Shown here: in pieces, positions 5,681-59,895 of the stretch
Numbering within the stretch: position 1 is the first letter of the stretch
How the letters are laid out: each line of letters starts with the position of its first letter
From: Candidatus Collierbacteria bacterium RIFOXYD2_FULL_45_13
Lineage (GTDB): Bacteria > Patescibacteriota > Microgenomatia > UBA1400 > MFAQ01
Length of the DNA stretch: 64,000 bases
Direction: 5' to 3'
Assembly (NCBI GenBank): GCA_001774685.1
Contig: MFAS01000001.1
Coordinates: forward strand, 159,557-223,556
Program-made: the position numbers and the translations under genes
The notes under the pieces: generated by a model
What the model was told of the DNA's origin: nothing
Database searches by the model: none
The model's input: the letters and a program-made list of their open reading frames with translations, nothing else

Positions 5681-6115
5681 ATGATAAAATTACAGTGCAT
5701 GAAATACCTCTTTCGACTTCTCGCCATTACTTTATTGTTTCTAGCTCTACTCTCTCCAACTACCGCAAATGCCACATCTGTGGGACCAATCAATTTTGCC
5801 TCCCCTCAAGGATCGTGCGGACAAGACTCCGTGGAAACAGCTCTGGGGTGTATCTCCACATTAGCCGATGCCGGACCAAACTCCTTCTTTGCTTCAATAA
5901 TTAAAATTGCAGTCGGCTTAGGTGGCGGACTCGCCCTGATTCTTATGCTTTACGGAGTCTTCATTGTTACCACCTCGGCTGGCATACCCGACAAGCTCAA
6001 AGAGGGTCAAGAAGTGATTACCTCAGCAATTTCCGGTCTCATCTTCATCATCCTCTCTGTTTTTCTACTAAACTTTATTGGTATCAATATTCTTAGTCTC
6101 CCTGGTTTACAATAA
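5681..6115 (+). CDS. T4SS pilin-like protein (VirB2/TrbC-like, two-TM hairpin)
   Basis: Signal-like N-terminus, then two hydrophobic helices separated by a short polar loop (GIPDKLKEGQEVITSAISGL). The size and topology match the paralogs at 8601..11236. Confidence 0.55.
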   Translation: MIKLQCMKYLFRLLAITLLFLALLSPTTANATSVGPINFASPQGSCGQDSVETALGCISTLADAGPNSFFASIIKIAVGLGGGLALILMLYGVFIVTTSAGIPDKLKEGQEVITSAISGLIFIILSVFLLNFIGINILSLPGLQ

Positions 6116-6119
6116 AATC

Positions 6120-6479
6120 ATGTTCTTCATAAAATCAGCCTACGCCGTAAATATTGGTCAAACCACATTATCAGGTTCTGGAGCTGATATTTCCAAACTT
6201 TACAATCCCGCCGAATCCAAAATCAAGATTGGTTCAGCCTTAAACAGTCTTTTCTCCAAAGACCTCATTAATTTGGTTTTTGTCATCGCCGGACTTCTCT
6301 TTTTTGCCAGTCTTGTCATGGCCGGTTGGGACTATATGATGAGTTCCGGTGACCCCAAAAAGGTAGCAGGGGCATCCACCAGATTTATCAACAGCTTGCT
6401 GGGTATCATTATGTCCCTCGTTGCCTACCTTGTAGTCCGGATAGTTCTGTCATTCTTGGGTCTTGGCAATCTCATTTAA
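6120..6479 (+). CDS. T4SS pilin-like protein (VirB2/TrbC-like)
   Basis: TM1 - loop AGWDYMMSSGDPKKVAGAS - TM2. The loop motif is shared with the 10880 ORF (AGSDPKAVASAW). The start is taken as the ATG at 6120, just after the upstream stop. Confidence 0.5.
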   Translation: MFFIKSAYAVNIGQTTLSGSGADISKLYNPAESKIKIGSALNSLFSKDLINLVFVIAGLLFFASLVMAGWDYMMSSGDPKKVAGASTRFINSLLGIIMSLVAYLVVRIVLSFLGLGNLI

Positions 6480-6505
6480 CCTGTTTTGGTATAATTTACA
6501 CCTGC

Positions 6506-7216
6506 ATGGCCACCCTACCAAAACACATTGCAATTATGATGGACGGTAATCGCCGCTGGGCACGTACCAAGGGCTTAGACCCTGTAAAAGGTCACGAATA
6601 CGCCGCCAATCACACTATAGAACCGCTGATTGAAAAATGTGCTGATCTGGGCATACCTTATGTCACCTTTTGGGCCTTTTCAACCGAAAACTGGAAACGG
6701 GAGGAAAAAGAGGTCCAAGGCATCCTAGAGATATTCCGACTTGCCTTTGGAGCCCTTGCCCTTCGCTTTATCAGCAAAGGAGCCAAATTGCATATTCTTG
6801 GAGATATGAGTCGATTTCCAAAGGATATCGTCAACAAATCACTTGAGATGATTGCGAAGTCTTCAAAAAATAACAAGATCACGGTCTCCTTTGCCCTCAA
6901 CTATGGAGGTCGTGACGAGATTGTCCGGGCCGTTAAAAAAATAGTTGCTGAAAAAATTCCCGTTAACCAAATCAATGAAGAAGCTGTCTCGACCCACCTC
7001 GATACTGCTGGTATGCCCGATCCGGATCTTGTCATCCGCACCGGCGGAGAACGACGTACCTCAGGCTATCTCCCCTGGCAATCTGTTTACTCCGAACTAT
7101 ATTTCACTCCCATTCTATTTCCCGACTTCACTCCCGACCAACTCATGGAAGCTATTAACGACTTCTCCCAAAGAGATCGCCGATTCGGCGGGAATTCCAC
7201 CCCAAAGACGAAATAA
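6506..7216 (+). CDS. uppS: undecaprenyl-diphosphate synthase (isoprenyl transferase)
   Basis: HIAIMMDGNRRWARTKGL ... NYGGRDEIV ... RTGGERRTSGYLPWQSVYSELYF are canonical UppS motifs. An extended -10 TGGTATAAT lies 10 nt upstream of the ATG. Confidence 0.9.
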   Translation: MATLPKHIAIMMDGNRRWARTKGLDPVKGHEYAANHTIEPLIEKCADLGIPYVTFWAFSTENWKREEKEVQGILEIFRLAFGALALRFISKGAKLHILGDMSRFPKDIVNKSLEMIAKSSKNNKITVSFALNYGGRDEIVRAVKKIVAEKIPVNQINEEAVSTHLDTAGMPDPDLVIRTGGERRTSGYLPWQSVYSELYFTPILFPDFTPDQLMEAINDFSQRDRRFGGNSTPKTK

Positions 7217-7417
7217 GATTTCATCGATAGCTTCCTGAGCAAAACCTTTCTTTTCAAATCTTTCACGGATCTGATAATAATCTCCAACCAATGGAATAGA
7301 CCCCCCAGGATATTTAAATACCGTCATGTCTGAGTCTTTTAATGTTTTTTCTTCTCCGTCGAATCTCATCCTTGTCGGTTGTTCACGCCAGTGTCTTGGT
7401 ACTTCCATAAAATTCAT
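7115..7417 (-). CDS. hypothetical small protein (100 aa); 3' end overlaps uppS
   Basis: ORF in the convergent gap between uppS and the polyprenyl synthase gene. No domain recognised. It may be shorter or spurious. Confidence 0.2.
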   Translation of the reverse strand: MNFMEVPRHWREQPTRMRFDGEEKTLKDSDMTVFKYPGGSIPLVGDYYQIRERFEKKGFAQEAIDEILFRLWGGIPAESAISLGEVVNSFHELVGSEVGK

Positions 7418-7462
7418 CCTAAAACACCATTTCTCTCAAACACTCTCACAATTTGTCACCAC

Positions 7463-8611
7463 CTATACCTCCCTCTCCACCATATACCTCGCAATCCCCT
7501 CGAGGTAATCGATCGCTTCTTCATTTAACCCCTTACCTCTCAAAGAAGCCGCCGTATCCGCGGCTTTGGCCGCATATTTTCTGGCTACATTTACGGAATA
7601 GGTATGTGCCCCGCTTTCTCTGATCGCCAGTTTTGCCGCCTCTATATCGCCATCCTCCGCCATGAGTTTTCCCCAAACTTTTAACAAGGCCTCCTTTTGG
7701 TTTTCTGTTCCCATCTCCATAACTTTCACAACGAGGAGTGTCACTTTGCCTTGCAATAGATCCGAGTTGGCGGATTTTCCGATTTTTTCTTCGTTGCCAT
7801 AGACACCTAGTACATCATCCTGCAGTTGAAAGGCTATCCCGCCGTCCACCGAATACTTACTTAGTATTTCTAAGATATCTTCCGGCAAACCAGCCAGCAA
7901 ACCGCCAACCATCAAGGGGTTTTCGTATGTATAGATTGCTGTTTTGGCTCTATGCAAGCTCATCACCTTTTCTTCCGTTATCTCTCCTATTTTTGACAAA
8001 CTCACATCGTACGCTTGTCCAAAGGCCGTATTGGTAATTCCTCTCAACACTTGTTTCATTATTCTTTGAATCTTTTCTCTGTCGGAACTACACTCTAACA
8101 ATCTTTCAAATCCTAAGCACAAAATAGCATCCCCGACATTCACGGCCATCGTGTCTCCATAATGAGCATCTCCTTCGCCAAAAAACTCTTGGGTTGTGGG
8201 TCTCCCCCTCCTTATTTTGTCTCCATCCATAAAGTCATCGTGCATTAAAAGAGCCGTGTGCACCAGCTCCACCGCTTCCGCCGCTCTCCACACCCCCTCC
8301 ATATTTTCGAATTTTTGATTTTTTGATTTTTTGAGTTTTTTCCCCAGCCGATATCCATAAATCACAAAGGCTGACCTTGCCCTTTTTGCCGATCTCAAGT
8401 TGTGTTCCTTGCTGTGACACAATATTTTGTGTACCAGTTTCTTCTGTGTCGGATTAAAACCAAAATTTTTCTCAATTTCCTCATCCCAATATTTATTCAA
8501 TCTCAAATCCATTTCTTTAGCCAATTCCATCAACCTTGCTTTCGCCCACTCTCCTAGCTTGTTTGTTACCATGTGTCCAATTTTACTGTAAAATATTCGT
8601 ATGGTTATCAA
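7463..8611 (-). CDS. polyprenyl (farnesyl/geranylgeranyl) diphosphate synthase
   Basis: First Asp-rich motif LLMHDDFMDGDKIRRGRPT and second motif FQLQDDVLGV. The N-terminal region contains a KKLKKSKNQKF stretch encoded by the TTTTTGA repeat. Confidence 0.85.
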   Translation of the reverse strand: MITIRIFYSKIGHMVTNKLGEWAKARLMELAKEMDLRLNKYWDEEIEKNFGFNPTQKKLVHKILCHSKEHNLRSAKRARSAFVIYGYRLGKKLKKSKNQKFENMEGVWRAAEAVELVHTALLMHDDFMDGDKIRRGRPTTQEFFGEGDAHYGDTMAVNVGDAILCLGFERLLECSSDREKIQRIMKQVLRGITNTAFGQAYDVSLSKIGEITEEKVMSLHRAKTAIYTYENPLMVGGLLAGLPEDILEILSKYSVDGGIAFQLQDDVLGVYGNEEKIGKSANSDLLQGKVTLLVVKVMEMGTENQKEALLKVWGKLMAEDGDIEAAKLAIRESGAHTYSVNVARKYAAKAADTAASLRGKGLNEEAIDYLEGIARYMVEREV

Positions 8612-8921
8612 AACCTCTCTTGCCGCAGAATCACTGGAGAACCTCTATGCTCCAGCCAAAGCCTTGAGCGGGGGTAGTGGGGCCACTCTCGCCAAACTCA
8701 TCAATCCTCTGATATACAACGTACTTATTATCTCCGGCCTGATTGCCTTTATTGTCATCATCATCGCTGGCTTCAACTATGTTTCGGCAGGTGGTGACAA
8801 GGGCAAAATTGAACAAGCACAAAACATGCTAAACTATTCAATAATAGGCCTGATATTAGTCGTCCTCGCCTTTTTAATTACTCGGGTCATTGGAGCGATC
8901 TTCGGCTTTAAATTCTTTTAA
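8601..8921 (+). CDS. T4SS pilin-like protein (VirB2/TrbC-like), paralog
   Basis: TM1 (LIISGLIAFIVIIIAGFNYV) - loop SAGGDKGKIEQAQN - TM2. The GGDK loop motif is shared by the tandem paralogs. Confidence 0.6.
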   Translation: MVIKTSLAAESLENLYAPAKALSGGSGATLAKLINPLIYNVLIISGLIAFIVIIIAGFNYVSAGGDKGKIEQAQNMLNYSIIGLILVVLAFLITRVIGAIFGFKFF

Positions 8922-8926
8922 CAAAA

Positions 8927-9286
8927 ATGAACATCCTCAACCAACTTATCAATAGTGCTTATGCCACCGATGTCATTGGCACCATTGATTTACCCGCCGG
9001 AATCCCCAAAGAAACCAGCCAGACCACCGACATTATCTCGGCCCTTATTCGTTTTATCGTTGTTGTGGGCGGAGTTTTTGCCCTTTGGCAATTACTGTCC
9101 GGGGGTTTTCAATTTATCAGCTCCGGCGGAGACAAAGGTAAGTTGGCCGAAGCTCAAAATAAAATTACCATGAGTCTGGTCGGCCTAGTCATCATCGCCG
9201 CCAGTTTCATCATCATCGCCATTATCAGCAAGGTTCTTTTTGATGATTTCGGAGCCATCCTCGCCCCCAAATTACAATCCATCTGA
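8927..9286 (+). CDS. T4SS pilin-like protein, paralog
   Basis: Loop FISSGGDKGKLAEAQNKIT between two TM helices. Confidence 0.6.
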   Translation: MNILNQLINSAYATDVIGTIDLPAGIPKETSQTTDIISALIRFIVVVGGVFALWQLLSGGFQFISSGGDKGKLAEAQNKITMSLVGLVIIAASFIIIAIISKVLFDDFGAILAPKLQSI

Positions 9287-9287
9287 T

Positions 9288-9653
9288 ATGAACAGATTCA
9301 TCCCTACCATACACGCCGCCGACATACCTCTTGGATCAGAAGTCGGTGGAGTAGGCCCTTTTCAAACAGCCATCAGTGGAGGAGTACAGGCCGGACTTGG
9401 TAATTTGCTCTCTAATCTTATTACCACCATGACCGTCATCGGAGGTCTAGCCTTTGTTGTCTATTTCTCGCTTGGAGCGCTCGAATGGATTACCGCCGGT
9501 GGAGACAAAACGAAAGTCTCCGGTGCCCAAACCCAGATGACTCAGGCCGCCATCGGCTTGATCGCCATTGTCGCCTCCTACTTTATTATCGGTATCGTCG
9601 GAGCTGTACTCGGTTTTGATATTCTCAATCCGTTTGCCGCACTAAAACTCTAA
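9288..9653 (+). CDS. T4SS pilin-like protein, paralog
   Basis: Loop WITAGGDKTKVSGAQTQMT between two TM helices. The start is taken as the ATG at 9288, right after the upstream TGA. Confidence 0.6.
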   Translation: MNRFIPTIHAADIPLGSEVGGVGPFQTAISGGVQAGLGNLLSNLITTMTVIGGLAFVVYFSLGALEWITAGGDKTKVSGAQTQMTQAAIGLIAIVASYFIIGIVGAVLGFDILNPFAALKL

Positions 9654-9659
9654 ATATTT

Positions 9660-10010
9660 ATGTCTATCACAATCATCCGCCCCGCCCACGCTGTCAACGA
9701 AATTGTTAACAGAGCCCTTTCTCCCAATGTCCCTCAAGATCCCGGTGGCGGTTTGGCTTTTTATATAGCCAGTCTCTGGCAAACAGTTGTCACCGTCGGA
9801 GGAATTGCCTTTATCATCTATCTAGTCTGGGGCGGTATCGAGTATCTCACCTCCGGTGGGGACAAGGCCAAAATTGATGACGCCCAGAAAAAAATCACCA
9901 GTTCGGTTATCGGTGTCGGTATTTTAGTTGCCTCCTACGCCATTACCTATTTCATTCAAGCTGTCTTCAAGATTAATATTCTCAAACCTGTTTTTCCCAG
10001 CGCACTATGA
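9660..10010 (+). CDS. T4SS pilin-like protein, paralog
   Basis: Loop YLTSGGDKAKIDDAQKKIT between two TM helices. Confidence 0.6.
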   Translation: MSITIIRPAHAVNEIVNRALSPNVPQDPGGGLAFYIASLWQTVVTVGGIAFIIYLVWGGIEYLTSGGDKAKIDDAQKKITSSVIGVGILVASYAITYFIQAVFKINILKPVFPSAL

Positions 10011-10366
10011 TATTCCAAAAACTTTCTCAGGTATTTGCCGCCGATATCGAGCTCCCTATTGGAGAAATGGCCACCAAAAATAACTTTTTCGGCTATACCT
10101 GTATCGGACATCTCGTCAGCAATCTCGTCGCCGCCGCTTTTATCGTTGCCGGTATCGCTTTCTTTGTCTATCTCGTCATGGGAGGCATCCAGTGGCTTAC
10201 TTCCGGCGGAGACAAGGGAAAAATTGAGTCATCCCAGAAGATGATCTCTGCCGCCCTGATCGGCCTAGCCATCGTCGCTTCTAGCTATGCAGTCTATATG
10301 ATTGTTCTCACCTTCTTCGGTATCAATCTAGACGCCCTCTGTACCGACAATCCTCTCGGTAATTGA
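10007..10366 (+). CDS. T4SS pilin-like protein, paralog
   Basis: Loop WLTSGGDKGKIESSQKMIS between two TM helices. There is a 4-nt overlap with the upstream gene. Confidence 0.6.
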   Translation: MIFQKLSQVFAADIELPIGEMATKNNFFGYTCIGHLVSNLVAAAFIVAGIAFFVYLVMGGIQWLTSGGDKGKIESSQKMISAALIGLAIVASSYAVYMIVLTFFGINLDALCTDNPLGN

Positions 10367-10428
10367 CAATTAAAAAATCATATATAATAGTCAGTAATAC
10401 GCATAACAATTATTAAAAAATAAAAAAC

Positions 10429-10770
10429 ATGTCTTTAATTCCTCAAGCATTGGCAGCAGCTGGCACCATCGGAGTTCCCCAACCGACAGGTATGAAGATC
10501 ACCGATATTGGCGTCCTTATCAGCCGTGTTATTTCTCTAGCTTTCATCGTTGCCGGTATTCTCACTTTCGCTTTTCTCGTCATGGGAGGCATTGAGTGGC
10601 TTACTTCCGGAGGAGACAAGGGCAAAACCGAACAGGCCAGAAATCGTATCACCGCCGCGGTTGTCGGTCTTGCGATCGTGGCTGCTTCCTGGGCTTTAAT
10701 GAAACTAATCGCCTATTTCTTTGGCGTTGATGTCTTCGAGGGAAACATCAACATCCCCAAACCCTACTAA
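10429..10770 (+). CDS. T4SS pilin-like protein, paralog
   Basis: Loop WLTSGGDKGKTEQARNRIT between two TM helices. Confidence 0.6.
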   Translation: MSLIPQALAAAGTIGVPQPTGMKITDIGVLISRVISLAFIVAGILTFAFLVMGGIEWLTSGGDKGKTEQARNRITAAVVGLAIVAASWALMKLIAYFFGVDVFEGNINIPKPY

Positions 10771-10798
10771 GAATTTAGTATTAGAAAAAAACAAATTA

Positions 10799-10818
10799 CC
10801 GCCGTCAGGCGGTTTTTT
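10799..10818 (+). terminator. rho-independent terminator after the pilin array
   Basis: ccgcc-gtca-ggcgg followed by TTTTTT. Confidence 0.6.
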
Positions 10819-10830
10819 GTATCCTTTTTT

Positions 10831-10861
10831 AACTTGAGTTTTTGAGTTCTTGAGTTTTTTT
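10831..10861. repeat. tandem TTGAGTTYT repeat (3 units), intergenic copy
   Basis: aacTTGAGTTTTTGAGTTCTTGAGTTTTTTT. Related copies lie at 8311..8342, 33907..33925, 44524..44561 and 53105..53131. Confidence 0.5.
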
Positions 10862-10879
10862 ACGATATAATTATTCTCA

Positions 10880-11236
10880 ATGACCCTTTCTTTCATTCCC
10901 CAAGCATACGCCGCCAGCAATTGGTCTGGAGAATGCGTTGGTCAAAATGTCGCTGGTGTGGACGCCACAGATGTGGCTTCTATCCAAGGAATTACCTGTT
11001 TGCTAAGAAACGTTCTTTCCCCTATACCAGCCCTCATTGCTCTTGCCGCCGTGGGCATCATTATCATGGCCGGCATTCGTCTAACTACTGCCGGATCGGA
11101 TCCCAAAGCAGTAGCTAGTGCTTGGAACATGTTCACTTGGGCCGTCATTGGTCTTATCCTGCTCTCCGCCGTGTGGCTGGCTCTTGTCCTTATCGAAAAC
11201 TTCACTGGTGCCAAGGTTACCCAATTCGGCATTTAA
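10880..11236 (+). CDS. T4SS pilin-like protein (divergent paralog)
   Basis: Signal-like N-terminus, then TM1 - loop TTAGSDPKAVASAWN - TM2. Confidence 0.5.
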   Translation: MTLSFIPQAYAASNWSGECVGQNVAGVDATDVASIQGITCLLRNVLSPIPALIALAAVGIIIMAGIRLTTAGSDPKAVASAWNMFTWAVIGLILLSAVWLALVLIENFTGAKVTQFGI

Positions 11237-21553: not shown

Positions 21554-21682
21554 CTCACTCTCATCTTAACATTTTCACCCTTCAGACATATACAATATTT
21601 TTCCCAAATCTCACCAGACACGATATACTTAACTAGACTCATCGAACCAGCAACCAACAACTTAAGAACTTCTCACCAAGAC

Positions 21683-23253: not shown

Positions 23254-23282
23254 AACCTGTCGTCTTCAGTTATACTTAATTC

Positions 23283-25175
23283 ATGGCTTTGAACCTTTTT
23301 TCTCTTGGCAAAAAACAAAGCGTACCGCCTGCTACTGCACCTGTCTCTACACCGGTTCCTAACGTTACATCAACAAACTCTTCTTCCGTCGATCAAAAAT
23401 CTGCCGCCTCCAGTCAATCCATCCAAGATATTATTGCCCCCTCTGCCGTTGAAGTCGATTTTTCTCATATCAAAATCGACGATGTCTATATCCGCACCCT
23501 CTTCGTCACCGGCTACCCTCGCTATGTCTCCGCCAACTGGTTATCCCCCCTGGTCAACTTCAATCACTCTTTAGACATTTCCATGTTTGTCTACCCTTCA
23601 GATTCCAAGGATACCTTAGAGAGTCTCAGGAGACGCATCGCCGAGATGGAAGCGGAAATTAATACCGATATCGAACGAGGCCGCATCCCCCGTGCCGCCA
23701 CCGAAGCGGGCTTGGAAGACGCTAAAGTTCTCCAATCACAGCTGGTCAAGGGAGCCGAAAGATTTTTCCAGTTCTCTCTATATATCAGCATCTCCGCTGA
23801 TTCCGAAAAAGAACTAAACACCTCCACCGCTCAGATTCAGTCCATGTTGGCTTCTCTCTTGATTATCAGCAAAATTGCTTCCCTCTCTATGGAAGATGCT
23901 TTCAAAAGCACCCTTCCTTACTGCAAGGACAAGCTGATGTTAACGAGAAATATGGACACGACGGCTCTCTCTACTACTTTTCCTTTTACTTCCTCAGAAC
24001 TTTCTGATAACCAAGGGATTCTTTACGGCGTCAATGCCCACAACGACTCCCTGGTTATCTTCGACCGTTTCTCTCTGGAAAATGCCAACATGCTGATACT
24101 GGCCACTTCCGGTGCCGGCAAGTCATACGCTGTCAAGCTCGAGATCCTTCGCTCTCTGATGTTCGACTGTCAAGTCATTATTCTCGATCCTGAAAACGAG
24201 TATGAGATGGTCACTAAGTCTGTCGGCGGCAACTATCTCTCTTTTTCTACCAGCTCTCAACACAAAATTAATCCTTTCCAGATAGCCCGCCCCAAAGAAA
24301 GTACCGAAGATGAAATGGGTTATAAATATCTTTTTCTCATGTCTCTCCTCAAGATCATGATTGGCCAGATGGACCCTATCGAAGAGGCTACTATGAATAG
24401 GGCTCTCGTCCTGACCTATCGTCAAAAAGGCATTACCGAAGACCCAGCCACCCATACTCTCGAACCACCTCGCATGGAAGATCTTTATCGCTCTCTTATT
24501 GGTATGGAAGAATCAGTCAGTAAAACATTGGCCGCCAGACTCGAGCGGTTTGTCATGGGTGCCGTCAAGGGAATTTTCGACCAGCAAAGCAATATTGACA
24601 TCAACGCTCCCATCACCGTTTTTACTCTTCGAGATACCGCCGATGAGATTCGGCCCATCATCATGTTTATGATTCTGGACTTTGTCTGGAATGAAGTGCG
24701 AAAAAATCTTCGCAAAAGAATGCTTGTCGTCGATGAGGCCTGGTACCTCATGCGTTACGAAGACTCTGCCAAAATTCTTCAGGGCTTCGTTAAACGCGCA
24801 CGTAAGTATTACTTCGGTGTATCTATCATTTCTCAGAACGTTGATGACTTTCTTGGTTCGGCTTATGGTAAAGCCATTATCACGAACTCCGCCCTCAAAC
24901 TACTCCTCAAACAGTCATCCGCTGCCATCAACCAGATCTCCGAAGTTTTCTATCTTTCTCAAGGCGAAAAACAACTATTACTTTCGGCCGGAGTCGGAGA
25001 GGGTATTTTCTTTGCCGGTATGAACCACGTCGCCATCAAAATTATTTCCTCCGCCGATGAACATGCCTTAGCCACCAGTAAGCCTGCAGAAATTTTGGAA
25101 AGACAGAAACAAGAAAAAGCCCAAGCAGCCGCCGAAGCCGCTTCCCAAATACAACCACAGCTAAGTAATTCCTAA
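23283..25175 (+). CDS. virB4: VirB4/TrbE/PrgJ-family T4SS ATPase (split VirB4, part 2)
   Basis: DIIAPSAVEVDFSHIKIDDVYIRTLFVTGYPRYVSANWLSPLV...DISMFVYPSD matches the Gram-positive VirB4 (Orf16/TcpF/PrgJ) middle-domain pattern. Walker A is ILATSGAGKSYAVK and Walker B is RMLVVDEAWYLM. The start codon is directly preceded by TATACTTAATTC. Confidence 0.8.
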   Translation: MALNLFSLGKKQSVPPATAPVSTPVPNVTSTNSSSVDQKSAASSQSIQDIIAPSAVEVDFSHIKIDDVYIRTLFVTGYPRYVSANWLSPLVNFNHSLDISMFVYPSDSKDTLESLRRRIAEMEAEINTDIERGRIPRAATEAGLEDAKVLQSQLVKGAERFFQFSLYISISADSEKELNTSTAQIQSMLASLLIISKIASLSMEDAFKSTLPYCKDKLMLTRNMDTTALSTTFPFTSSELSDNQGILYGVNAHNDSLVIFDRFSLENANMLILATSGAGKSYAVKLEILRSLMFDCQVIILDPENEYEMVTKSVGGNYLSFSTSSQHKINPFQIARPKESTEDEMGYKYLFLMSLLKIMIGQMDPIEEATMNRALVLTYRQKGITEDPATHTLEPPRMEDLYRSLIGMEESVSKTLAARLERFVMGAVKGIFDQQSNIDINAPITVFTLRDTADEIRPIIMFMILDFVWNEVRKNLRKRMLVVDEAWYLMRYEDSAKILQGFVKRARKYYFGVSIISQNVDDFLGSAYGKAIITNSALKLLLKQSSAAINQISEVFYLSQGEKQLLLSAGVGEGIFFAGMNHVAIKIISSADEHALATSKPAEILERQKQEKAQAAAEAASQIQPQLSNS

Positions 25176-29831: not shown

Positions 29832-30217
29832 TTGTTTCTAGTATACATAATCTTCATGGCCATTCCGACCGAATGTTTTATGACATTGTAATCTGTTTAA
29901 GTTATTTGTTATTTCTTTACTGTTATATTGTTTTATTTAAATAAAAACAGTAGTGAATAGTAGTAGAAGTGGTGGACAAGTGGACAATAGCTTTACCACT
30001 TGCCTACTTTCTCTGTTGTTAATCTTTTATCGACTCTTACATCCACCCTTTCTATTCAAAAGTCAACAAATCCCTTCTTGACCGATTGCTATCAACTCTC
30101 TTTCTGTGTGGATTCTTTTCTGAATAACTTGATTGCTTATCCACCCATTTCTAAACAATCTAATACTTCTTCACAGTTGTTGAAGATATCCACAGAGCGT
30201 GGATAAGATGTGGATAG
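29832..30217. other. oriC: putative chromosomal replication origin (oriC) between dnaA and dnaN
   Basis: Cluster of DnaA-box-like 9-mers:
- TGTGGACAA x2 (complement of TTGTCCACA) at about 29967..29985.
- GATATCCACA at 30186.
- GTGGATAAG and TGTGGATAG at 30199..30218.
An AT-rich stretch at about 29880..29950 is a candidate DNA unwinding element. Confidence 0.6.
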
Positions 30218-32886: not shown

Positions 32887-33000
32887 CTTCCCCTACGGGG
32901 ATCAACGAGACTCACTAAACTCGAGATGACAAATAAATAATACTTAACTCCAATAATGCTAATTATTGACTTCGGGTATCTTATGGCATAAATTAAATAT

Positions 33001-37228: not shown

Positions 37229-37462
37229 ACTCTCAACTTTCACAAAGAAAAAATTCAGCAGAATGAGGATTCCTTGGCTATGCATAGTATGTGGACAAGT
37301 CTAATTGATCCTGTGCCCAGATTTTCACATGTAGAAAGTAAGTACAAGAAAAGGAAACACCAGGCAGAAGAGATGCAAAAAAACGAGGCTAGAAAAAAAG
37401 CAAAATAAGTAAGAACGAAAAAAAGTAAAAGTATAAAACAGGAAATCATCTATACTTAATTC

Positions 37463-40186
37463 ATGGACGCGGGAAAAATTAAGATTGCTGTCTGGAGCAA
37501 CAACTCGTTTGTGGAGGATTCTTTCGTTGGTCAGACGAGTGTCCTTGAGCTGGATTTTAAAGAGTTCAAAACCACCGTCTCGACACCCTATTTCCTTGCC
37601 ATCATAGACTTGGATAAAAGCCTCTCGAACGTAAGTCAACAACTAATAGACCTGTATTCGTTGGCGCGTGAAAAAGATCAAAAACTGGCCGTCATCCTAC
37701 TTCACGGCGCTGAAGTCGACACCGAAAAAAACCTCTACTTCCAGGAACTACTTGGTAAAATGGGGGGAGATAGGCCTTTACATCGTCTAGTAATCGTTAA
37801 AGATCTCTTTCAGGTTAATCTTCTCTATTCCGAAACCTACCTCGAAAAATATATCTTGGAGGCGATTGCTGATCGAAAAATTATCATATCCGTAAAAGGC
37901 GAAAACACGCTGTTCCCAATATCTTTTTCAGATATAACAAACTGCCTTAAAAAAATTCTTTTTCTTCAGGGTACTGCCGGCAAAACTTTCTGGGTGCTGG
38001 GAGATCCTGTTACCGACCTTGAAATAGCATACCTTATTAAAAAAAATCTTGAGGATACCGAAGGGGCCGAGTTCGAAATTGATGCCACAGGAGAGAACCA
38101 GAAACTCTCTCTAGATCTTAATGCCTTGGGAAATCAGACAAGAGCAATGCTCACCTGGGAGCCCAAAGAGGAGTTCTCGTCAAGTCTCAAGGACGCTGTT
38201 CATCGGCTTTCCGAGGACCGGTCCCTATTGCTTACGAAACTTCATCATAACCAAAAACAGAACGGCTCACCCGCACAAAAAACAATCGAAAAATACTTCC
38301 GGATTTTCACGAAGACCATCCTCACGATAAAACTCAAAAAGAAAGAAATCAAAAACATCGAAACTAGCCGACAACTGCTGCGCAGCCTTTTTGAAAGGCT
38401 ACTAATTTTGGCAACCTCGGTGTATCTAATTCTCACTGTGAGTTTTATTATGTTTACCTCACTCTCTCTGAGATACGTCGAAAAAACCTTATTTGTTATG
38501 AGGAGGGGAGATATTGCCACCTCGGTCAAATATCTCAAACAATCTAGATTCTTTTCCAAAATAGGGGAAGACAGTTACTCTGCCATCTCCCCATTAATCT
38601 CCTTGATAGCAGACGACATCCACGAAAAGAACTACAACCTCTTTATTTTTCTTCATTATTCGCAGTCTAGTCTGGTCAGCCTCCAGCAAACATATCAGTT
38701 AGCCGAAAGTATTTATCGGACCATAGGTGACACTTCGAAAGGTCAGTTTTATATCGATTCCAGTCTTGCGCTGCGCTCAAATCTTAGCCAAGTATATGAA
38801 AATCTGAATCAAATTGAACTGCTTAGCGGACAGGGAAAACTCCCCAAAATACTTCAAGACAAGATAAGCTCTAGTCCGGAATTCAAAAACTTGAAACTGA
38901 TTGAACAACAAATCACTGATCTACTAAAAACTATCGAACTTATTCCGGCCTTTCTGGCGGGGGACTCAGCCAAGAATATTGTCATTCTGTTTCAAAACAG
39001 CCAAGAAATCCGCAGTACTGGAGGAGCCATCGACTATATCTTGGCGCTTGTCCTCGACCAGGGACGTGTTGTGTCCAAAAATATATACCGTAGCGACGAG
39101 ATTGATAAATTGGCCGTGGGTATTATTAGTGCGCCCCCTTTTGTCAGCCAATTTACCGGCCTAAGCGATTGGAAGATGAGAGATCTCAATTACAATCCGG
39201 ACTTTCCCCAGACGGCGACCAACGTCTCTTGGTTTATAGAAAAGACTCTGAAGTTCAAGCCGGACATCATCATGGCCATGAACGACAAACTCATCAGCAG
39301 TTTGCTGATTGAAGACAAGGGGGTTATGTTACAAGGCCAAAATATTACCGCAGACTCGTTCAGACAAGAATTGAGGTCTGTTTCACCCAGCTCTCTTTAC
39401 AGAGACCTTATCAACTATTATCTGGATGGTATTTTCAACCACACCCGAACGCTCGTATCCCTTGGCAGGGTAATTGCCAAGCAGTCGGACGAAAATCAAT
39501 TACTGTTTTGGTCAGCGGACGACAATGTTGAAGAGTCAATAATCACTCAATCCTTTGCTGGCGCGCTCTATCCGCACTCATGTCATGGGGGACTATCAAA
39601 CGTTCGAACCTGCATAGCTCAAACGACCTATTTAAATGAGTCAAACTATTCTCTCTTACCGCTTTCCGACATCCTTGAACGCAAGACTCTACACACGGTC
39701 TGGCTTGAACCGGATATCATCAGGCACGAATATCACCTTCAGTATCAATTCAAGGACAAGATAACCAATCAGAATCGGGACATTAATGAACTCTTTCAAA
39801 TTTATGCTCCACAAAACTCTACGCTGGATCAGGTTCAACTTGACGACAAGATTCTCTCTCTACGCTTGGGCACAGAACAACAAGACAATGACTTGAAAAG
39901 GTTCCAATTTCCCATATCTTTCACCCTCAATCAACCGCATAACCTTATCTTTAGATTTAGTACTCGCCTATCAAACACCAGCCTCCTTCCTTATGCTTAT
40001 TCTCTGACCGAATACCACCAGCCGGGAATTTCCAACCAGTATGCAGAGTTAAACATCAACATCCCGGAAACGGCGAGACCGGCAACAATCACCTCCCCAG
40101 TTAGTACTGGACCAAACAGTTTAAAGCTGGTTATGCCGGCCAAAACAACTACCTTTGGTGTCAGCTTGACAGTTGGAAGTCGGTAA
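37463..40186 (+). CDS. DUF4012-domain membrane protein with N-terminal cytoplasmic domain
   Basis: A central TM helix is followed by AKNIVILFQNSQEIRSTGGAIDYILALVLDQGRVV, the DUF4012 consensus (LllfQNnaElR.tGGfiGsy). The start codon is preceded by TATACTTAATTC. Confidence 0.65.
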   Translation: MDAGKIKIAVWSNNSFVEDSFVGQTSVLELDFKEFKTTVSTPYFLAIIDLDKSLSNVSQQLIDLYSLAREKDQKLAVILLHGAEVDTEKNLYFQELLGKMGGDRPLHRLVIVKDLFQVNLLYSETYLEKYILEAIADRKIIISVKGENTLFPISFSDITNCLKKILFLQGTAGKTFWVLGDPVTDLEIAYLIKKNLEDTEGAEFEIDATGENQKLSLDLNALGNQTRAMLTWEPKEEFSSSLKDAVHRLSEDRSLLLTKLHHNQKQNGSPAQKTIEKYFRIFTKTILTIKLKKKEIKNIETSRQLLRSLFERLLILATSVYLILTVSFIMFTSLSLRYVEKTLFVMRRGDIATSVKYLKQSRFFSKIGEDSYSAISPLISLIADDIHEKNYNLFIFLHYSQSSLVSLQQTYQLAESIYRTIGDTSKGQFYIDSSLALRSNLSQVYENLNQIELLSGQGKLPKILQDKISSSPEFKNLKLIEQQITDLLKTIELIPAFLAGDSAKNIVILFQNSQEIRSTGGAIDYILALVLDQGRVVSKNIYRSDEIDKLAVGIISAPPFVSQFTGLSDWKMRDLNYNPDFPQTATNVSWFIEKTLKFKPDIIMAMNDKLISSLLIEDKGVMLQGQNITADSFRQELRSVSPSSLYRDLINYYLDGIFNHTRTLVSLGRVIAKQSDENQLLFWSADDNVEESIITQSFAGALYPHSCHGGLSNVRTCIAQTTYLNESNYSLLPLSDILERKTLHTVWLEPDIIRHEYHLQYQFKDKITNQNRDINELFQIYAPQNSTLDQVQLDDKILSLRLGTEQQDNDLKRFQFPISFTLNQPHNLIFRFSTRLSNTSLLPYAYSLTEYHQPGISNQYAELNINIPETARPATITSPVSTGPNSLKLVMPAKTTTFGVSLTVGSR

Positions 40187-40225
40187 CGCTTGAGAAGGCA
40201 GGCATTCTAAGATACAATACCACTC

Positions 40226-46690: not shown

Positions 46691-46754
46691 TCTTGATATA
46701 CTTTAACTGTAATCGGATGTCCCGTTTATATATTCTAACTTGACTACTTAATTT

Positions 46755-48263
46755 ATGGATAATCAATTTCCACTACCAGGTCCGGTTGCTTCCGTTCCGG
46801 AGCCATCAACTTTCCCTCCCTCGACGTCTGATGTCTCACCTTTGCCTAGTCCCGAAGAGGCAGCACCTCCACCACCCGGATATCAGCCACCCGCCGCAGC
46901 CAACCCTCCAGCCGTTTCGAGCTCACCTTTCAAAATGATTACTCCTATAATCATTGGCTTGGTCGTCATTGGTCTGATTGCCTATATTTTGTTCCGCCTC
47001 CTTGGTAAGACCGTCAGCAGCAAAACTCAGTCAGTCTCTCCGTCCACAACCGTCACTTTGACATACTATGGCCTTTGGGAGCCATCTTCCGTTATGAAAC
47101 CGGTTATCGATGCCTTCGAAAAACAAAATCCCAACATCAAGATCGACTACCAGCTCCAATCACCACAGGACTACCAAGACCGTGTAAAAACAGCATTGGA
47201 AAGTCAGACTCCACCTGATATCGTTCGATTGCACACCACCTGGCTACCTCTTTTTGCAGCCGCTTTGCTTCCGGCTCCCCCCAACACCTTATCGGCAACA
47301 GAGCTTGCTACTAATTTTTATCCCATCGTCAGCAAGCTTCTGGTATCCGGGAATCAAGTTTACGGTGCACCCATGACCGCGGAAACCCTGGGGCTTTTTG
47401 TTAACACCGCCATTCTTCAGCAAAAACAGCTCCAACCACCCAAAACTTGGGAGGATCTGCTTACAGCCGCCAAAGCAGTAAGAGAGCTAGAGCCGATTAC
47501 CGGAAAGATTAGACGTGCAGGTGTCGCTCTTGGCAACACCACCAACGTCGAATACTGGCCCGACATTGTCTCCATGATGCTTCTACAAGCCGGTGTTTCC
47601 CTTACCGACATCAAAGGACCGGAAGTGGGTGTCACTCTGAAGTACTACACAGATTTTGTTTCCAAACATCAAGTTTGGGACGACACACTGCCTCCTTCAA
47701 CGGTTGCATTTTCAAATGAGAAAGTAGCCATGATTATTGCTCCCAGTTGGGTTGCTAAAGATATCAAAGCTATCAACCCGTCACTTTCTTGGCAGGTTGT
47801 TCCGGTTCCCCAGCTTCCGGATATTGATCCGATTAGCTGGACATCAATCTGGTTTGAGGCTGTTGCCAAGAATAGTGCTCACCCGCAGGAAGCATGGAAA
47901 TTTGTTAGTTTCTTGGCTTCGGCAAACGCCCAGCAAATACTTTTTGACTCGGCTACTCAAGATAGAGGATTCCCCCAGCCTCCCGCCAACAAGGCTGTTG
48001 CCGAAATTGCTTCTAAGAATCCGGTTCTTGCTCCCTTTGTTGACAGCCTTAACACGGCCAAGACCTTTTACACTGCCTCAAAGACTCAAGATTCCAAAAC
48101 CGCCTTGAATTCTCGCCTGATCAAATACCTGGAAGACGCCATTAATAGTACTTCCACTAACCAAGAGGACAACAAAATCGTGGAAACCTTACACAACGGC
48201 TTCGTTCAGGTATTATCTCAATACGGCTTGGTAGCCGCACCACCTCCTTCACCCACTCCGTAA
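46755..48263 (+). CDS. extracellular solute-binding protein (ABC-type, family 1) with Pro-rich N-terminus and TM anchor
   Basis: Pro-rich segment, then a TM helix, then TLTYYGLWEPSSVMKPVIDAFEKQNPNIKIDYQ...YQDRV, which is sugar-SBP-like. No permease genes are adjacent. Confidence 0.6.
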   Translation: MDNQFPLPGPVASVPEPSTFPPSTSDVSPLPSPEEAAPPPPGYQPPAAANPPAVSSSPFKMITPIIIGLVVIGLIAYILFRLLGKTVSSKTQSVSPSTTVTLTYYGLWEPSSVMKPVIDAFEKQNPNIKIDYQLQSPQDYQDRVKTALESQTPPDIVRLHTTWLPLFAAALLPAPPNTLSATELATNFYPIVSKLLVSGNQVYGAPMTAETLGLFVNTAILQQKQLQPPKTWEDLLTAAKAVRELEPITGKIRRAGVALGNTTNVEYWPDIVSMMLLQAGVSLTDIKGPEVGVTLKYYTDFVSKHQVWDDTLPPSTVAFSNEKVAMIIAPSWVAKDIKAINPSLSWQVVPVPQLPDIDPISWTSIWFEAVAKNSAHPQEAWKFVSFLASANAQQILFDSATQDRGFPQPPANKAVAEIASKNPVLAPFVDSLNTAKTFYTASKTQDSKTALNSRLIKYLEDAINSTSTNQEDNKIVETLHNGFVQVLSQYGLVAAPPPSPTP

Positions 48264-50532: not shown

Positions 50533-50553
50533 TTTTTTTAATATACTTAACTC

Positions 50554-53500
50554 ATGGCCTTGCCCAAATACTCTGTTTTGCAGATACGTCCAGCCAAAGA
50601 CTCCCTCACTGGGCAGGCGGCCTTTATCGAATTTCTGGCTTCACTCAGAACGGCTCTAAAATCAGGTTTCCTGGATAGGCTTCTTGGAACGTATGAAACT
50701 ATCTGTCTTGAAATTGTCAATTTAAATCAGACTACCTTTTTTATTCTTGCCTGTCCGGAACGACTCGAACATTTAGTACGCGCTCAGATTGCAGCCCAGT
50801 ATCCCACCGCACTCATTACCCCTATGAAAGATTATCTATCCGACTGGCTGAACCACGGTCAGACCGCTCTCGGTCAGCTTGTTCTCACCGGTCCCTCATA
50901 TCTTTCACTCAACAACACCTTGGACGATAAAGTCGACCAAATGGCCTCCATTCTTGGCAGTCTCGCAAGAATTCCTGCCGGTCAGGCTGGAATAATCCAG
51001 ATATGTCTTTTTGCTGCTCCGAAGAACTGGCAAAAATCCGCCCGCGCACAGCTGGAAGTTGTTACCCCCGCTACAGCCACCGATGCCGCCAAAAGTAAGC
51101 CTAGTCCCTACAAAGCCATTATCGAAAAAAAATTAATTTATCCGGCTTATTCTTGTGATATACGTCTGGCGACTATTGCACACGACCAGCAAACGTCCAA
51201 ACAACTCCTGTCTCAAATTGCAGCCGCGTTCGGTACTTATGCTCTTTCAGAAGGTAATAGCTTCAAACTAAAAACACCCAAGCACTCTGGGTCACTCAAC
51301 AAGCTTCGTCAGATGATATTGGATCGCTCTGCCAAGTATGCGAACCAATATCAATATCTCAACTATGGCGAAATTACCGCCATGTTCCACCTTCCTGGGG
51401 TATTACTGGCACCCATCAAGGGAATTGCGTGGGGTAAGACCCTAAAAGGTGAGGCTCCCACCAACCTACCGGTTGATGAGAATCTTCCGGAGAACGAAAG
51501 ACATCTGTACAATTTTTTTGCCAAAACCGAGTACAAGAATCACTTAGCAATCTTCGGTATGAAAAAGGGGATCGATCGCCTTCGCCATACTTACATTTTG
51601 GGGAAGTCGGGAACCGGTAAATCAACCCTCATCGGCCGCATGGCCATTAACGATATTCAGCACGGAGAAGGGGTTGCCTTTGTTGATCCTCATGGTGACG
51701 CAGCCGAAGTTCTTTTAGATTATATTCCAGAGAGCCGTATCGATGAAGTTGCTTATTTAGACCCTTCAGTTCCCGGCATATCTTTTTGGATGAATCCTCT
51801 CTATGTCAAAAACCCTGCTCAGGGTGAAATGGTTGCCTCCAGCATTGTCTCTATTTTTAGCAAACTTTACGGTAATTCCTGGGGACCTCGTCTGGAGTAT
51901 ATATTAAGAAATACCTTACTAACCCTGGTTTACAAGCCGGAAACTACCTTAGCGGATGTACCCCGTATACTTACCAACAAAGATTTCCGCGAAAAAGAGT
52001 GTTTGATCCACGTTACCGACCCGATTCTTGTCAATTTCTGGCGTGACGAATACGATAAGTATTCCGAAAAGTTTCAAACCGAAGCCATTGCTCCGATCTT
52101 AAATAAAGTTGGTCAGTTTGTCACCTCTCCTACCATCCGCGATATCATCAATCATCCCAAAAGCACCGTCGATTTTGAGGAGATGATGAACACCGGCAAG
52201 ATCATTATCCTGAATCTACCCCAGGGAAAGATAGGAGAAGACAATGCCGCCTTACTTGGAGCCATGTTCATTTCTCAAATCCAAATTGCGGCGATGAATC
52301 GGGCCCATGTGGCCGAAGAAAAAAGGAGAGATTTCTTTCTTTATGTCGATGAGTTCCAAAACTTCGCCACCTCTTCCTTTGTGAAGATCCTTTCCGAGGC
52401 TCGGAAATATAGGCTTGGATTAATCCTAGCCAATCAGTACATCGCACAACTGCCAGAAGAGATTCAAAATGCCATTTTTGGCAACGTCGGAACTGTTATG
52501 AGTTACGTTGTAGGGGCCTCGGACGCCGATCGAATCGTAAAAGAATTGAATAATCTGTACACAGCTGACGATCTTGTTGGTTTGGGTAAATATCAACTGG
52601 CTATGAAAATGTCTGTCGACTCCCAAATGACCCAACCTTTCTCCTCATATGGATTACCATTACCTGATACCCGAACCCAGCAAAAAGAAAAGGTTCTCGC
52701 CGCCACCTACGAGAAATACTATCGCAAAATAGAGCCTATGGATATGTCCCAGGTTACTGCCATTATGACCCCGGCACCCAAACGATATACCGAACCACCT
52801 TACATCCCAAAAGCGCTTAGAGAACCTTCCGCTGCAATCTCAGATCAAAAAGAAGCCACACGAAGTTATGAAGACACTCAGCGTTTTAACAAGCCGCCTT
52901 TTGTAAGTGTCTCTACTTCCACTACCGTGCCACCAAAACTTCCATATCAGCCCCAACTCCCTCCCACTCCGGCATTATCCAAGCCGAACCCATTCAAAAT
53001 TCCTCCATCAGGATCTCCTCCGGTTTCTTCGCCACCCGTAGTGGATCGTCGTGGCCTGCCCATTTCACCCCCCACAAAACCGGTCGACTCAATAAAACCA
53101 CTAACTGAGAACCGAGAACTGAGAACTGAGATCTCTACCTCGACCTCTCTCAAAGAACCTTCCTTGGAAGAACTCGATGGTCTTCGCAAACAGGGTTTGC
53201 GCCCCAGTGTCGTCGGCTGTTTCTTAAATAATAAAAAAATTCTTCTAGCTTACCAAAAATCGTTTAATCAATGGACTCTTCCTCAGGGGGGAGTGGACAA
53301 CGGAAAAACCATTAAGGAAACGTTCTTTCAGGAAATGGGAGAGGAGGTCACGGAGGACTTTATCAAAACATGTAGTGAAGATATCAAACTTGTCGCTGTC
53401 GATAAAATCGAATTTCCCCCAAGCAAACAAGGACTCAGAGATATGGTTACTGATTCAGACGAACCCGTAGTGATGAAAGGGAAATATTACTATTTCTATA

Positions 53501-53985
53501 CTAGCGATGCCCAATCAACCGATATAACTATCGGAGCTAGCGAATTCGACGATATAAAATGGCTAAATTACGACGAAGCGTATAAACTAATTAAAGAGAC
53601 CAACTCCGGCGGCAGGTTGAGGACGATCACCAACCTTCTCCGAGTGCTCATGGAAAAGGGTCTTCTGTCTACCAATCAACCTTCAAAACATGGATCCGAA
53701 CCGGAACCAAAACCAGAAAGACCAAAAACTAATACTTCCTCCGGAAGATACTCTCCTGGCGAGTCCAGAAACTTTCAGAACGGTAGTTTCGGATCCGGAC
53801 CCATCGCCGGTGACATCAGGAGTCAGTTACACCCCGCCTCAGTCGTGGGGGGCAGACCAGTCAGCGGTCCCGATGGGAACTCCAACAGTCGAACCCCTTC
53901 AAACTCCATCTCGGAATCCTCAACTCTCGGAATCGACGACTCCACCAAGCCATCAGGAGACTCTACCCCTCCCTCCGCGTACTGA
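50554..53985 (+). CDS. VirD4/TrwB (type IV coupling protein)-like P-loop NTPase with long disordered Pro-rich region and Nudix-like C-terminal module (1143 aa)
   Basis: - Walker A HTYILGKSGTGKSTLIG, then HGEGVAFVDPHGDAAEVL...VAYLDP...FWMNPL. This parallels TrwB/TraD motifs (GTTGSGKS...VIVDPNGD...ILNP).
- Walker B FFLYVDEFQNF ... RKYRLGLILANQ.
- No N-terminal TM helix.
- C-terminus WTLPQGGVDNGKTIKETFFQEMGEEV is a degenerate Nudix-box-like segment.
- The start codon is preceded by TATACTTAACTC. Confidence 0.55.
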   Translation: MALPKYSVLQIRPAKDSLTGQAAFIEFLASLRTALKSGFLDRLLGTYETICLEIVNLNQTTFFILACPERLEHLVRAQIAAQYPTALITPMKDYLSDWLNHGQTALGQLVLTGPSYLSLNNTLDDKVDQMASILGSLARIPAGQAGIIQICLFAAPKNWQKSARAQLEVVTPATATDAAKSKPSPYKAIIEKKLIYPAYSCDIRLATIAHDQQTSKQLLSQIAAAFGTYALSEGNSFKLKTPKHSGSLNKLRQMILDRSAKYANQYQYLNYGEITAMFHLPGVLLAPIKGIAWGKTLKGEAPTNLPVDENLPENERHLYNFFAKTEYKNHLAIFGMKKGIDRLRHTYILGKSGTGKSTLIGRMAINDIQHGEGVAFVDPHGDAAEVLLDYIPESRIDEVAYLDPSVPGISFWMNPLYVKNPAQGEMVASSIVSIFSKLYGNSWGPRLEYILRNTLLTLVYKPETTLADVPRILTNKDFREKECLIHVTDPILVNFWRDEYDKYSEKFQTEAIAPILNKVGQFVTSPTIRDIINHPKSTVDFEEMMNTGKIIILNLPQGKIGEDNAALLGAMFISQIQIAAMNRAHVAEEKRRDFFLYVDEFQNFATSSFVKILSEARKYRLGLILANQYIAQLPEEIQNAIFGNVGTVMSYVVGASDADRIVKELNNLYTADDLVGLGKYQLAMKMSVDSQMTQPFSSYGLPLPDTRTQQKEKVLAATYEKYYRKIEPMDMSQVTAIMTPAPKRYTEPPYIPKALREPSAAISDQKEATRSYEDTQRFNKPPFVSVSTSTTVPPKLPYQPQLPPTPALSKPNPFKIPPSGSPPVSSPPVVDRRGLPISPPTKPVDSIKPLTENRELRTEISTSTSLKEPSLEELDGLRKQGLRPSVVGCFLNNKKILLAYQKSFNQWTLPQGGVDNGKTIKETFFQEMGEEVTEDFIKTCSEDIKLVAVDKIEFPPSKQGLRDMVTDSDEPVVMKGKYYYFYTSDAQSTDITIGASEFDDIKWLNYDEAYKLIKETNSGGRLRTITNLLRVLMEKGLLSTNQPSKHGSEPEPKPERPKTNTSSGRYSPGESRNFQNGSFGSGPIAGDIRSQLHPASVVGGRPVSGPDGNSNSRTPSNSISESSTLGIDDSTKPSGDSTPPSAY

Positions 53986-59625: not shown

Positions 59626-59895
59626 ATGTTGCTTTATGGGTTCTTGATTCTTTTAGGTTCGATTGTTCTGCTTGTTCTCGATATAAAACTAATTATGGAG
59701 AATGATAAGACTAACTTATTCTTGAAAATGTTGGGAGGTCTATTCATTCCAGCCATTTTCTGGATCAATGTATTAAATTTCGGTGCCAACTTTCTCCCTA
59801 CACTTTTGTCCATCCCAGGCGTCCAAGCTGTCGGACCCATAATTGGGATTATCTTAGTCATCGGCTACATTTTCCTTAGAATAACTTTAAAATAA
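59626..59895 (+). CDS. small membrane protein (89 aa, 3 TM)
   Basis: Strong SD GAAGGAGG 8 nt upstream of the start. Hydrophobic throughout. Confidence 0.45.
   Translation: MLLYGFLILLGSIVLLVLDIKLIMENDKTNLFLKMLGGLFIPAIFWINVLNFGANFLPTLLSIPGVQAVGPIIGIILVIGYIFLRITLK

Follow-up and report, generated by a model that had tools for sequence, protein, structure and literature searches.

Leaderless genes in bacteria, the 'group C' of GeneMarkS-2, are recognised by a Pribnow box that lies 6-8 nucleotides (nt) ahead of the gene start, and leaderless transcription in bacteria is known mainly from the Actinobacteria and Deinococcus-Thermus (PMC6028130). In phage lambda, the PRM-cI mRNA is transcribed from the A of its AUG and has no 5' untranslated region (PMC10491246). 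Here we describe a comparable layout in a 64-kb stretch of chromosomal DNA (hereafter the window, positions 1-64000) from Candidatus Collierbacteria, which belong to the Microgenomates in the Candidate Phyla Radiation (CPR). In this window the 12-mer TATACTTAAYTC, with the hexamer TATACT at its core, directly adjoins the start codons of three genes, namely virB4 of a type IV secretion system (T4SS), a DUF4012 gene, and a gene for a type IV coupling protein (T4CP)-like ATPase with a fused NUDIX domain (T4CP-NUDIX). We consider it probable that the core of the 12-mer is a sigma-70-type, mostly -10-only promoter, that the mRNAs of the three genes are leaderless, and that this arrangement is a genome-wide habit. 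To our knowledge, gene expression signals in CPR bacteria, which are uncultured or barely tractable, are essentially undescribed. The literature that we searched contained no paper on leaderless or Shine-Dalgarno initiation in CPR, Patescibacteria, Saccharibacteria, Parcubacteria or Microgenomates, although it may be described elsewhere. The leaderless layout matters for how start codons are called in thousands of CPR metagenome-assembled genomes, and the sites below supply concrete promoter predictions for T4SS genes, which have been reported to be essential for epibiotic growth of a cultured Saccharibacterium (cited in 10.1101/2025.01.22.634366).

Before virB4 (23283..25175, plus strand; 630 amino acids (aa); Pfam P-loop_TraG and CagE_TrbE_VirB), the hexamer TATACT (23271-23276) and a 6-nt A/T-rich discriminator, TAATTC, occupy 23271..23282 on the plus strand, with the ATG as the +1 predicted for a leaderless mRNA. 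The same hexamer and discriminator stand at 37451..37462 (plus strand) before the DUF4012 gene (37463..40186, plus strand; 907 aa; identified by Pfam and homologues). At 50542..50553 (plus strand), TATACT with the discriminator TAACTC and a T-run on its 5' side precedes the gene for the T4CP-like ATPase with C-terminal NUDIX (50554..53985, plus strand; 1143 aa; Pfam TrwB_AAD_bind, TraG-D_C and NUDIX). The window thus holds three exact copies of TATACTTAAYTC, starting at 23271, 37451 and 50542, all on the plus strand, as against none in 100 dinucleotide-preserving shuffles. As the original prediction had it, each copy directly adjoins a start codon: its 3' end is followed by an ATGG that opens a long open reading frame (ORF). 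A comparison of the flanks found no similarity among the copies beyond the motif. With up to two mismatches allowed, the 12-mer has 15 matches in the window versus 10 ± 3 expected, which is no enrichment, and the signal is confined to exact or near-exact copies. The looser copies that had been proposed upstream of other genes were also found, namely TATACTTAACTA at 21624, 47 nt 5' of the conserved start (21683) of a PrgI-like gene, AATACTTAACTC at 32939, 50 nt 5' of a Bro-N gene, and TATACTTTAACT at 46697, 46 nt 5' of a solute-binding-protein gene.

The virB4, DUF4012 and T4CP-NUDIX genes all start with ATG and have N-termini that are conserved in orthologues (MALNLF in the case of VirB4), and an in-frame TAA 6 nt upstream of the starts excludes a longer ORF. 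A function of this TAA as a stop codon is unlikely: the 5-nt spacing found in four virB4 orthologues (e.g., loci L010 and L017) puts it out of frame, nor is it the stop of the upstream gene. The virB4 site lies within the 29-nt spacer that separates a TraC/TrsD-like gene from virB4. Contrary to an earlier description of virB4 as the second part of a broken gene, the 630-aa VirB4 can be aligned over its whole length with hundreds of CPR VirB4s, and these alignments indicate that it is a normal full-length gene with a separate TraC/TrsD-like gene upstream. An identical VirB4 protein is found in the Candidatus Collierbacteria assemblies GCA_001000625.1 and GCA_001774675.1, in the latter on a 1.09-Mb contig. 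In some Collierbacteria an insertion (approximately 590 aa, near residue 280) extends the VirB4 ORF to 1128-1220 aa (L042:1233-4892, also L044, L045 and L047); for the ORF of locus L042, Pfam shows this insertion to be an intein with a LAGLIDADG homing endonuclease. None of the three starts (23283, 37463, 50554) has a Shine-Dalgarno-like 4-mer (GGAG, GAGG, AGGA or AAGG) 4-18 nt upstream. Over their first 50 nt, the three predicted mRNAs are no more stably folded than shuffled sequences, and 5' mRNA structure is thus uninformative as an explanation. An Rfam scan of the window found no known RNA family at the sites, the only matches being a tmRNA and a tRNA elsewhere.

We compared the sites with orthologous loci, taken for virB4 from 70 species-level genomes, for T4CP from 30 metagenome contigs and for DUF4012 from six exact-protein loci; every comparative locus was fetched via these genes, and the sample is accordingly biased. 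Among 22 unique virB4 upstream regions, gTTATACTTAA is conserved at 91-100% per column, as compared with approximately 40-50% in the rest of the short spacer. The distance from hexamer to ATG is 6 nt in 18 of these and 5 nt in the other four. For T4CP, TATACT is present in 14/14 unique upstream regions, down to 59% protein identity, and the 6-nt spacing is kept in 13 of them; the hexamer is followed by TAA in closer relatives and by TTA, TAT or TAG in distant ones. TATACT also lies 6-7 nt before the ATG or GTG of DUF4012 orthologues with 37-73% identity (at 6 nt in three of four orthologous upstream regions), where the discriminators are AAATTA, AAACAT, GAGAGT and TAATCTA. At two genes with more distant copies, cgaTATACT is found in 30/31 orthologous PrgI-like upstream regions at 6-73 nt from the ATG, and cttGaTATACTTTA in 16/16 of those of the solute-binding protein at 14-59 nt. 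Between 94 and 100% of the PrgI-like, virB4 and solute-binding-protein sites have a G at -14, which the T4CP and DUF4012 sites lack. These comparisons indicate that the element is real and under selection and that what stays invariant in it is the hexamer, in most cases together with the T that follows. The fixed spacing at start codons together with the occurrence at a distance argues for a -10 promoter box rather than a ribosome-binding site. In more distant relatives (66-75% VirB4 identity) the virB4 box is missing and the PrgI-like promoter is retained, and for this reason the virB4 promoter appears to be an internal one that was gained in Collierbacteria proper.

The conservation of the full 12-mer up to the ATG did not hold, as the last three nucleotides vary freely among species. 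The 12-mer was thus rejected as a functional unit, given that orthologues keep TATACT and mostly the next T, with TAA in close relatives only. The likeness of the three copies in the window would have its source in one stably maintained -10 variant, in the TAA that follows the hexamer in closer relatives of this genome, in a preferred pyrimidine at -1, and in an ATGG that comes from an Ala, Gly or Asp second codon; at the DUF4012 start, ATGG is not kept among orthologues. Position -1 is C or T in 14/14 T4CP and 29/32 virB4 upstream regions, which agrees with the usual pyrimidine(-1)/purine(+1) preference at transcription start sites. From base frequencies in the 34 orthologous discriminators spaced at 6 nt, the probability that two discriminator 6-mers coincide is approximately 0.04 per pair, and complete identity between the virB4 and DUF4012 copies is therefore a mild coincidence atop a real 9-mer consensus.

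The same layout is common in the window. For 53 curated gene starts, we measured how far upstream of the start codon each TAnnnT hexamer ends, and found 8, 4, 4 and 7 such hexamers at 6, 7, 8 and 9 nt, i.e., 23 versus 5.7 expected (Poisson p approximately 4e-8; background approximately 1.4 per position). The leaderless placement proposed in the original prediction is supported by this enrichment, and its assignment of TATACT as a -10 box with the A of ATG as +1 is in keeping with the retained hexamer and 6-nt spacing, the lack of Shine-Dalgarno sequences and the pyrimidine at -1. Related loci totalling 1.29 Mb show a similar pattern for TATAAT and TACAAT, which peak 5-8 nt before long ORFs. 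Among individual genes, rpmH orthologues have tgaTAAAAT-6/7-ATG, also in loci labelled Shapirobacteria, Nealsonbacteria and Paceibacterota; smpB orthologues have TATAAT-6-ATG, those of a Wzy-like gene TACAAT-7/8-GTG, those of Bro-N TTGACT-17-TAAATT-6-ATG, and those of tsaD TAAAAT or TAGAAT in leaderless layout. A useful comparator is the gene for ribosomal protein L25, with a canonical leaderless promoter, TTGAGA-17-TACAAT (40190..40218, plus strand), that ends 7 nt before the ATG at 40226. Taken together, the data suggest that first genes in Collierbacteria mostly have -10 boxes next to their start codons and hardly ever use a Shine-Dalgarno sequence. Genes internal to operons (e.g., those at 22603, 25178, 27715, 34225, 34967, 48266 and 55126) have no Shine-Dalgarno sequence either, and their starts overlap the stop codon of the gene before them or follow it by 2-12 nt, which suggests termination-reinitiation coupling as a second main mode of initiation.

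In the scheme that we favour, a sigma-70-type holoenzyme would recognise TATACT at -12 to -7, aided by the G at -14 at three of five genes and, at the PrgI-like gene only, by the -35-like TTCCCA. The six A/T-rich bases after the hexamer would serve as the discriminator and transcription would initiate at the A of the ATG, whereupon the 5'-AUG mRNAs of virB4, DUF4012 and T4CP-NUDIX would be translated by the leaderless route, independently of a Shine-Dalgarno sequence. In this Collierbacteria genome and in related ones, genes that open a transcription unit would ordinarily be expressed in this way. We infer where transcription starts, which sigma factor is involved and that translation is leaderless; the anatomy of the sites, their positional enrichment and their conservation across species are direct observations. 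TATACT behaves in these comparisons as an ordinary -10 variant, because at dnaN it alternates with TATAAT, TACAAT, TAGAAT and TAAGAT; it also pairs at 17 nt with -35-like hexamers, namely with TTCCCA at the PrgI-like gene and, on the minus strand at 43838-43804, with a perfect TTGACA. The leaderless -10 interpretation appears well supported by the comparisons, while an interpretation as a T4SS-specific 12-mer is not supported.

Several observations weigh against this scheme. The placement of +1 at the A of the ATG is a prediction from geometry. No recognisable -35 element was found at the virB4 and DUF4012 sites, and a two-hexamer promoter scan did not call the virB4 TATACT site. Wherever TATACT is present, all six positions are invariant (86 unique upstream regions in five orthogroups, at least 45% identity), and this invariance, including the non-consensus C, seems tighter than a generic -10 would strictly need. 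The TAA after the hexamer is common to virB4 and T4CP in closer relatives, and a generic model would account for it only loosely, as an A/T-rich discriminator. Lastly, virB4 lies in the PrgI-TrsD-virB4 operon, 29 nt past the preceding gene, and read-through transcripts with an internal AUG must exist.

Compared with the described systems, the window resembles group C genomes such as Mycobacterium tuberculosis and Deinococcus deserti in its TAnnnT box 6-8 nt before first-gene starts that lack a Shine-Dalgarno sequence, and in that Shine-Dalgarno-led genes coexist in the same genome (PMC6028130). Indeed, clear GGAGG-type sites exist in the window, e.g., at 59626 and at 62135 (minus strand). It differs from group C in lineage, in having full E. 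coli-like hexamers (TATAAT, TACAAT, TATACT) in place of a loose TANNNT, in an apparently still rarer use of Shine-Dalgarno sequences (a Shine-Dalgarno-like 4-mer at approximately 4 of the 53 genes), and in having one such promoter inside an operon, before virB4. The predicted start at the A of the AUG is shared with lambda PRM-cI, which is a single regulated, activator-dependent phage promoter, whereas the layout here is constitutive-looking and genome-wide. As in -10-only and extended -10 (TGn) sigma-70 promoters, virB4 and DUF4012 have a weak -35 or none, and three genes have the G at -14, the full TGn being found at the solute-binding-protein promoter only. On the side of the ribosome, the anti-Shine-Dalgarno motif has been lost in part of the Parcubacteria, and ribosomal protein bS21 is frequently absent in Collierbacteria (PMC9297842); a connection between the loss of bS21 and leaderless translation is our own suggestion. 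The window thus adds a lineage to those in which a known mechanism is exemplified, and TATACT may in addition mark a promoter class of its own.

In such a class, TATACT-W-A-A, often with G at -14, would be recognised by an alternative sigma factor dedicated to it, or by a regulator acting over the -10, and would define a T4SS/envelope regulon. We regard this as unlikely. Within 90 nt upstream, TATACT is found at 30/31 PrgI-like, 22/32 virB4, 4/4 DUF4012, 16/16 solute-binding-protein and 14/14 T4CP genes, i.e., in 86 of 97 unique upstream regions of five orthogroups, compared with 0-2 occurrences in each of 25 other orthogroups. The single C-to-A change that would give TATAAT is seen in none of the 86, and the class logo reads G(-14) n TATACT W A A. 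Each of the three inner-membrane/ATPase T4SS genes with a promoter of its own carries the box, and the solute-binding-protein gene is syntenic with a YidC2/SPFH/T4CP cluster; 19 kb of additional flank, with 25 more genes, contained no further TATACT promoter. The putative regulon, to which we give equally low odds, would consist of the PrgI/VirB3-like operon, virB4, T4CP-NUDIX, DUF4012 and the solute-binding-protein cluster. It would make the T4SS machinery of these episymbionts switchable as a unit, partly via leaderless mRNAs, with G-n-TATACT-W-A-A as a conserved box for a Collierbacteria host-interaction regulon. A precedent for such a design is provided by the phage T4 late promoters, which carry TATAAATA and are read by the gp55 sigma factor, and which likewise have an 8-9 bp motif in the -10 region, no -35, and a functionally related gene set. 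Unlike in T4, however, no gene for a sigma factor was found among the Pfam-annotated genes of the window, where Bro-N is the sole DNA-binding-type candidate, and TATACT is interchangeable with generic -10s at dnaN, where the window has TATACT and orthologues have the generic variants. Other variants are equally gene-specific and stable: TACAAT is kept at the Wzy-like gene (10/11) and at L25 (5/6), and TATAAT at SPFH in all 14 cases listed. TATACT also precedes rpmH, dnaN and the Wzy-like gene in other CPR loci, and it pairs with sigma-70-like -35 hexamers. It differs from TATAAT at one position (C at position 5), plus the W-A-A extension, and the five genes share no sequence beyond the -10 and the discriminator. 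All loci were obtained through these very genes, which biases the sample. Nor does the box follow the T4SS: the T4SS pilin genes and the gene at 11267 have TAAAAT or TATAAT instead, which rules out a T4SS-wide signal, while DUF4012, the solute-binding-protein gene and dnaN, none of them T4SS genes, carry TATACT. On these grounds, and in view of the genome-wide leaderless layout and of the Bro-N copy, which is kept in the closest relative only, the original prediction of a signal shared by the T4SS genes is not supported in the form in which it was made.

Two further explanations can be set against a promoter. Transcription might start further upstream, with UAUACUUAA as a 5'-leader RNA element that acts as a non-Shine-Dalgarno ribosome-binding site or translation enhancer. 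Such an element would be welcome in a genome that hardly uses Shine-Dalgarno sequences, where leadered and internal genes need another start-selection signal, and the motif does adjoin the ATG at three genes. A ribosome site would, however, not tolerate the distances at which the motif is kept at the PrgI-like and solute-binding-protein genes; internal operon genes lack it, the three bases adjoining the ATG are the least conserved, and the bases that are conserved belong to a -10 box (T1, A2, T6), spaced as a +1 at the A would require. We therefore hold this explanation to be very improbable. Least credible of all is that the copies are functionless, as chance matches or as remnants of a repeated or mobile sequence. 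The lack of enrichment with two mismatches and the unconserved Bro-N copy would fit this explanation, but the exact copies, none of which arises in the shuffles, all adjoin start codons, they are dissimilar outside the motif, and the core is kept at orthologous positions in dozens of species with diverged flanks. The comparative data thus already contradict it.

The PrgI/VirB3-like gene has a leadered promoter, TTCCCA-17-TATACT followed by TAA (21601..21632, plus strand), which was called by the promoter scan and has a predicted transcription start at approximately 21636, as compared with a coding sequence (CDS) start at 21683. In one subclade (L007, L008, L011 and L031) the long PrgI-like leader is filled by GATCT-containing short repeats, and in L011 the virB4 TATACT box is lost. 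The solute-binding-protein gene (CDS 46755..48263) has a putative extended -10 promoter with leader, TGaTATACTTTAA (46694..46706, plus strand), identified by orthologue conservation, which adjoins the start codon of a divergent VanW gene (46690, minus strand). This start codon (CAT on the plus strand, 46688-46690) is 6 nt from the TATACT box; the complement of ACTTTA, TAAAGT, could be a -10 for VanW, and the two promoters may overlap as a bidirectional one. The leader of the solute-binding-protein gene (46709-46754; sites in L074-L109) has no Shine-Dalgarno sequence and contains a conserved block, TTTTAACTTGACTA..TAA..T, directly 5' of the ATG; the window version, ACTACTTAATTT followed by ATGG, resembles the 3' half of the motif first noticed. 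At dnaN, TATACT (29840..29845, minus strand) lies 8 nt before the ATG (29831). The near-copy AATACTTAACTC before Bro-N (32939..32950, plus strand) is probably non-functional, being unconserved in the orthologue comparison. An autoregulatory site was considered and rejected, as the copy is kept in L043, the closest relative, only and Bro-N has its own promoter, TTGACT-17-TAAATT-6-ATG, at 32966..32994 (plus strand) by the promoter scan.

The perfect TTGACA-17-TATACT site on the minus strand is followed by approximately 235 nt with no convincing ORF, ending in a hairpin and T-run (43590-43563). The stretch 43838-43563 could be a small RNA; it has no Rfam match and no similarity to the orthologous tsaD-leuS spacers of L104-L109. 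Downstream of it on the same strand, at approximately 43470-43400, GGTGGTACCGC, which resembles a T-box core, lies upstream of leuS (start 43343) with a hairpin and T-run 3' of it, and the T-box-like 11-mer also occurs 80-158 nt before leuS in 4/6 orthologous loci. The Rfam T-box model found no match at E <= 1 upstream of leuS; any T-box here would have to be short or divergent.

The T4SS set of the window comprises seven or eight pilin paralogues, the PrgI/VirB3-like gene, the TraC/TrsD-like gene, virB4 and an M23 peptidase. The small paralogous T4SS_pilin genes (PF18895) lie at 5681-11236, interrupted by two isoprenoid-synthesis genes, and several of them have their own TAAAAT or TATAAT box near the ATG. 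The genes dnaA, dnaN, rpmH, rnpA, yidD and yidC are found at 28.7-35 kb, and the window also contains groES/EL, leuS, tsaD, gap and pgk. This placement matches that of published Patescibacteria T4SS loci, which lie near replication genes, in a paper that does not deal with promoters (10.1101/2025.01.22.634366). The GC skew is negative (C > G on the plus strand) over 1-64000, and dnaA/dnaN (28.7-31.7 kb) do not mark a change of its sign. For another Microgenomates genome, a paper reportedly describes an unusual disparity in strand composition.

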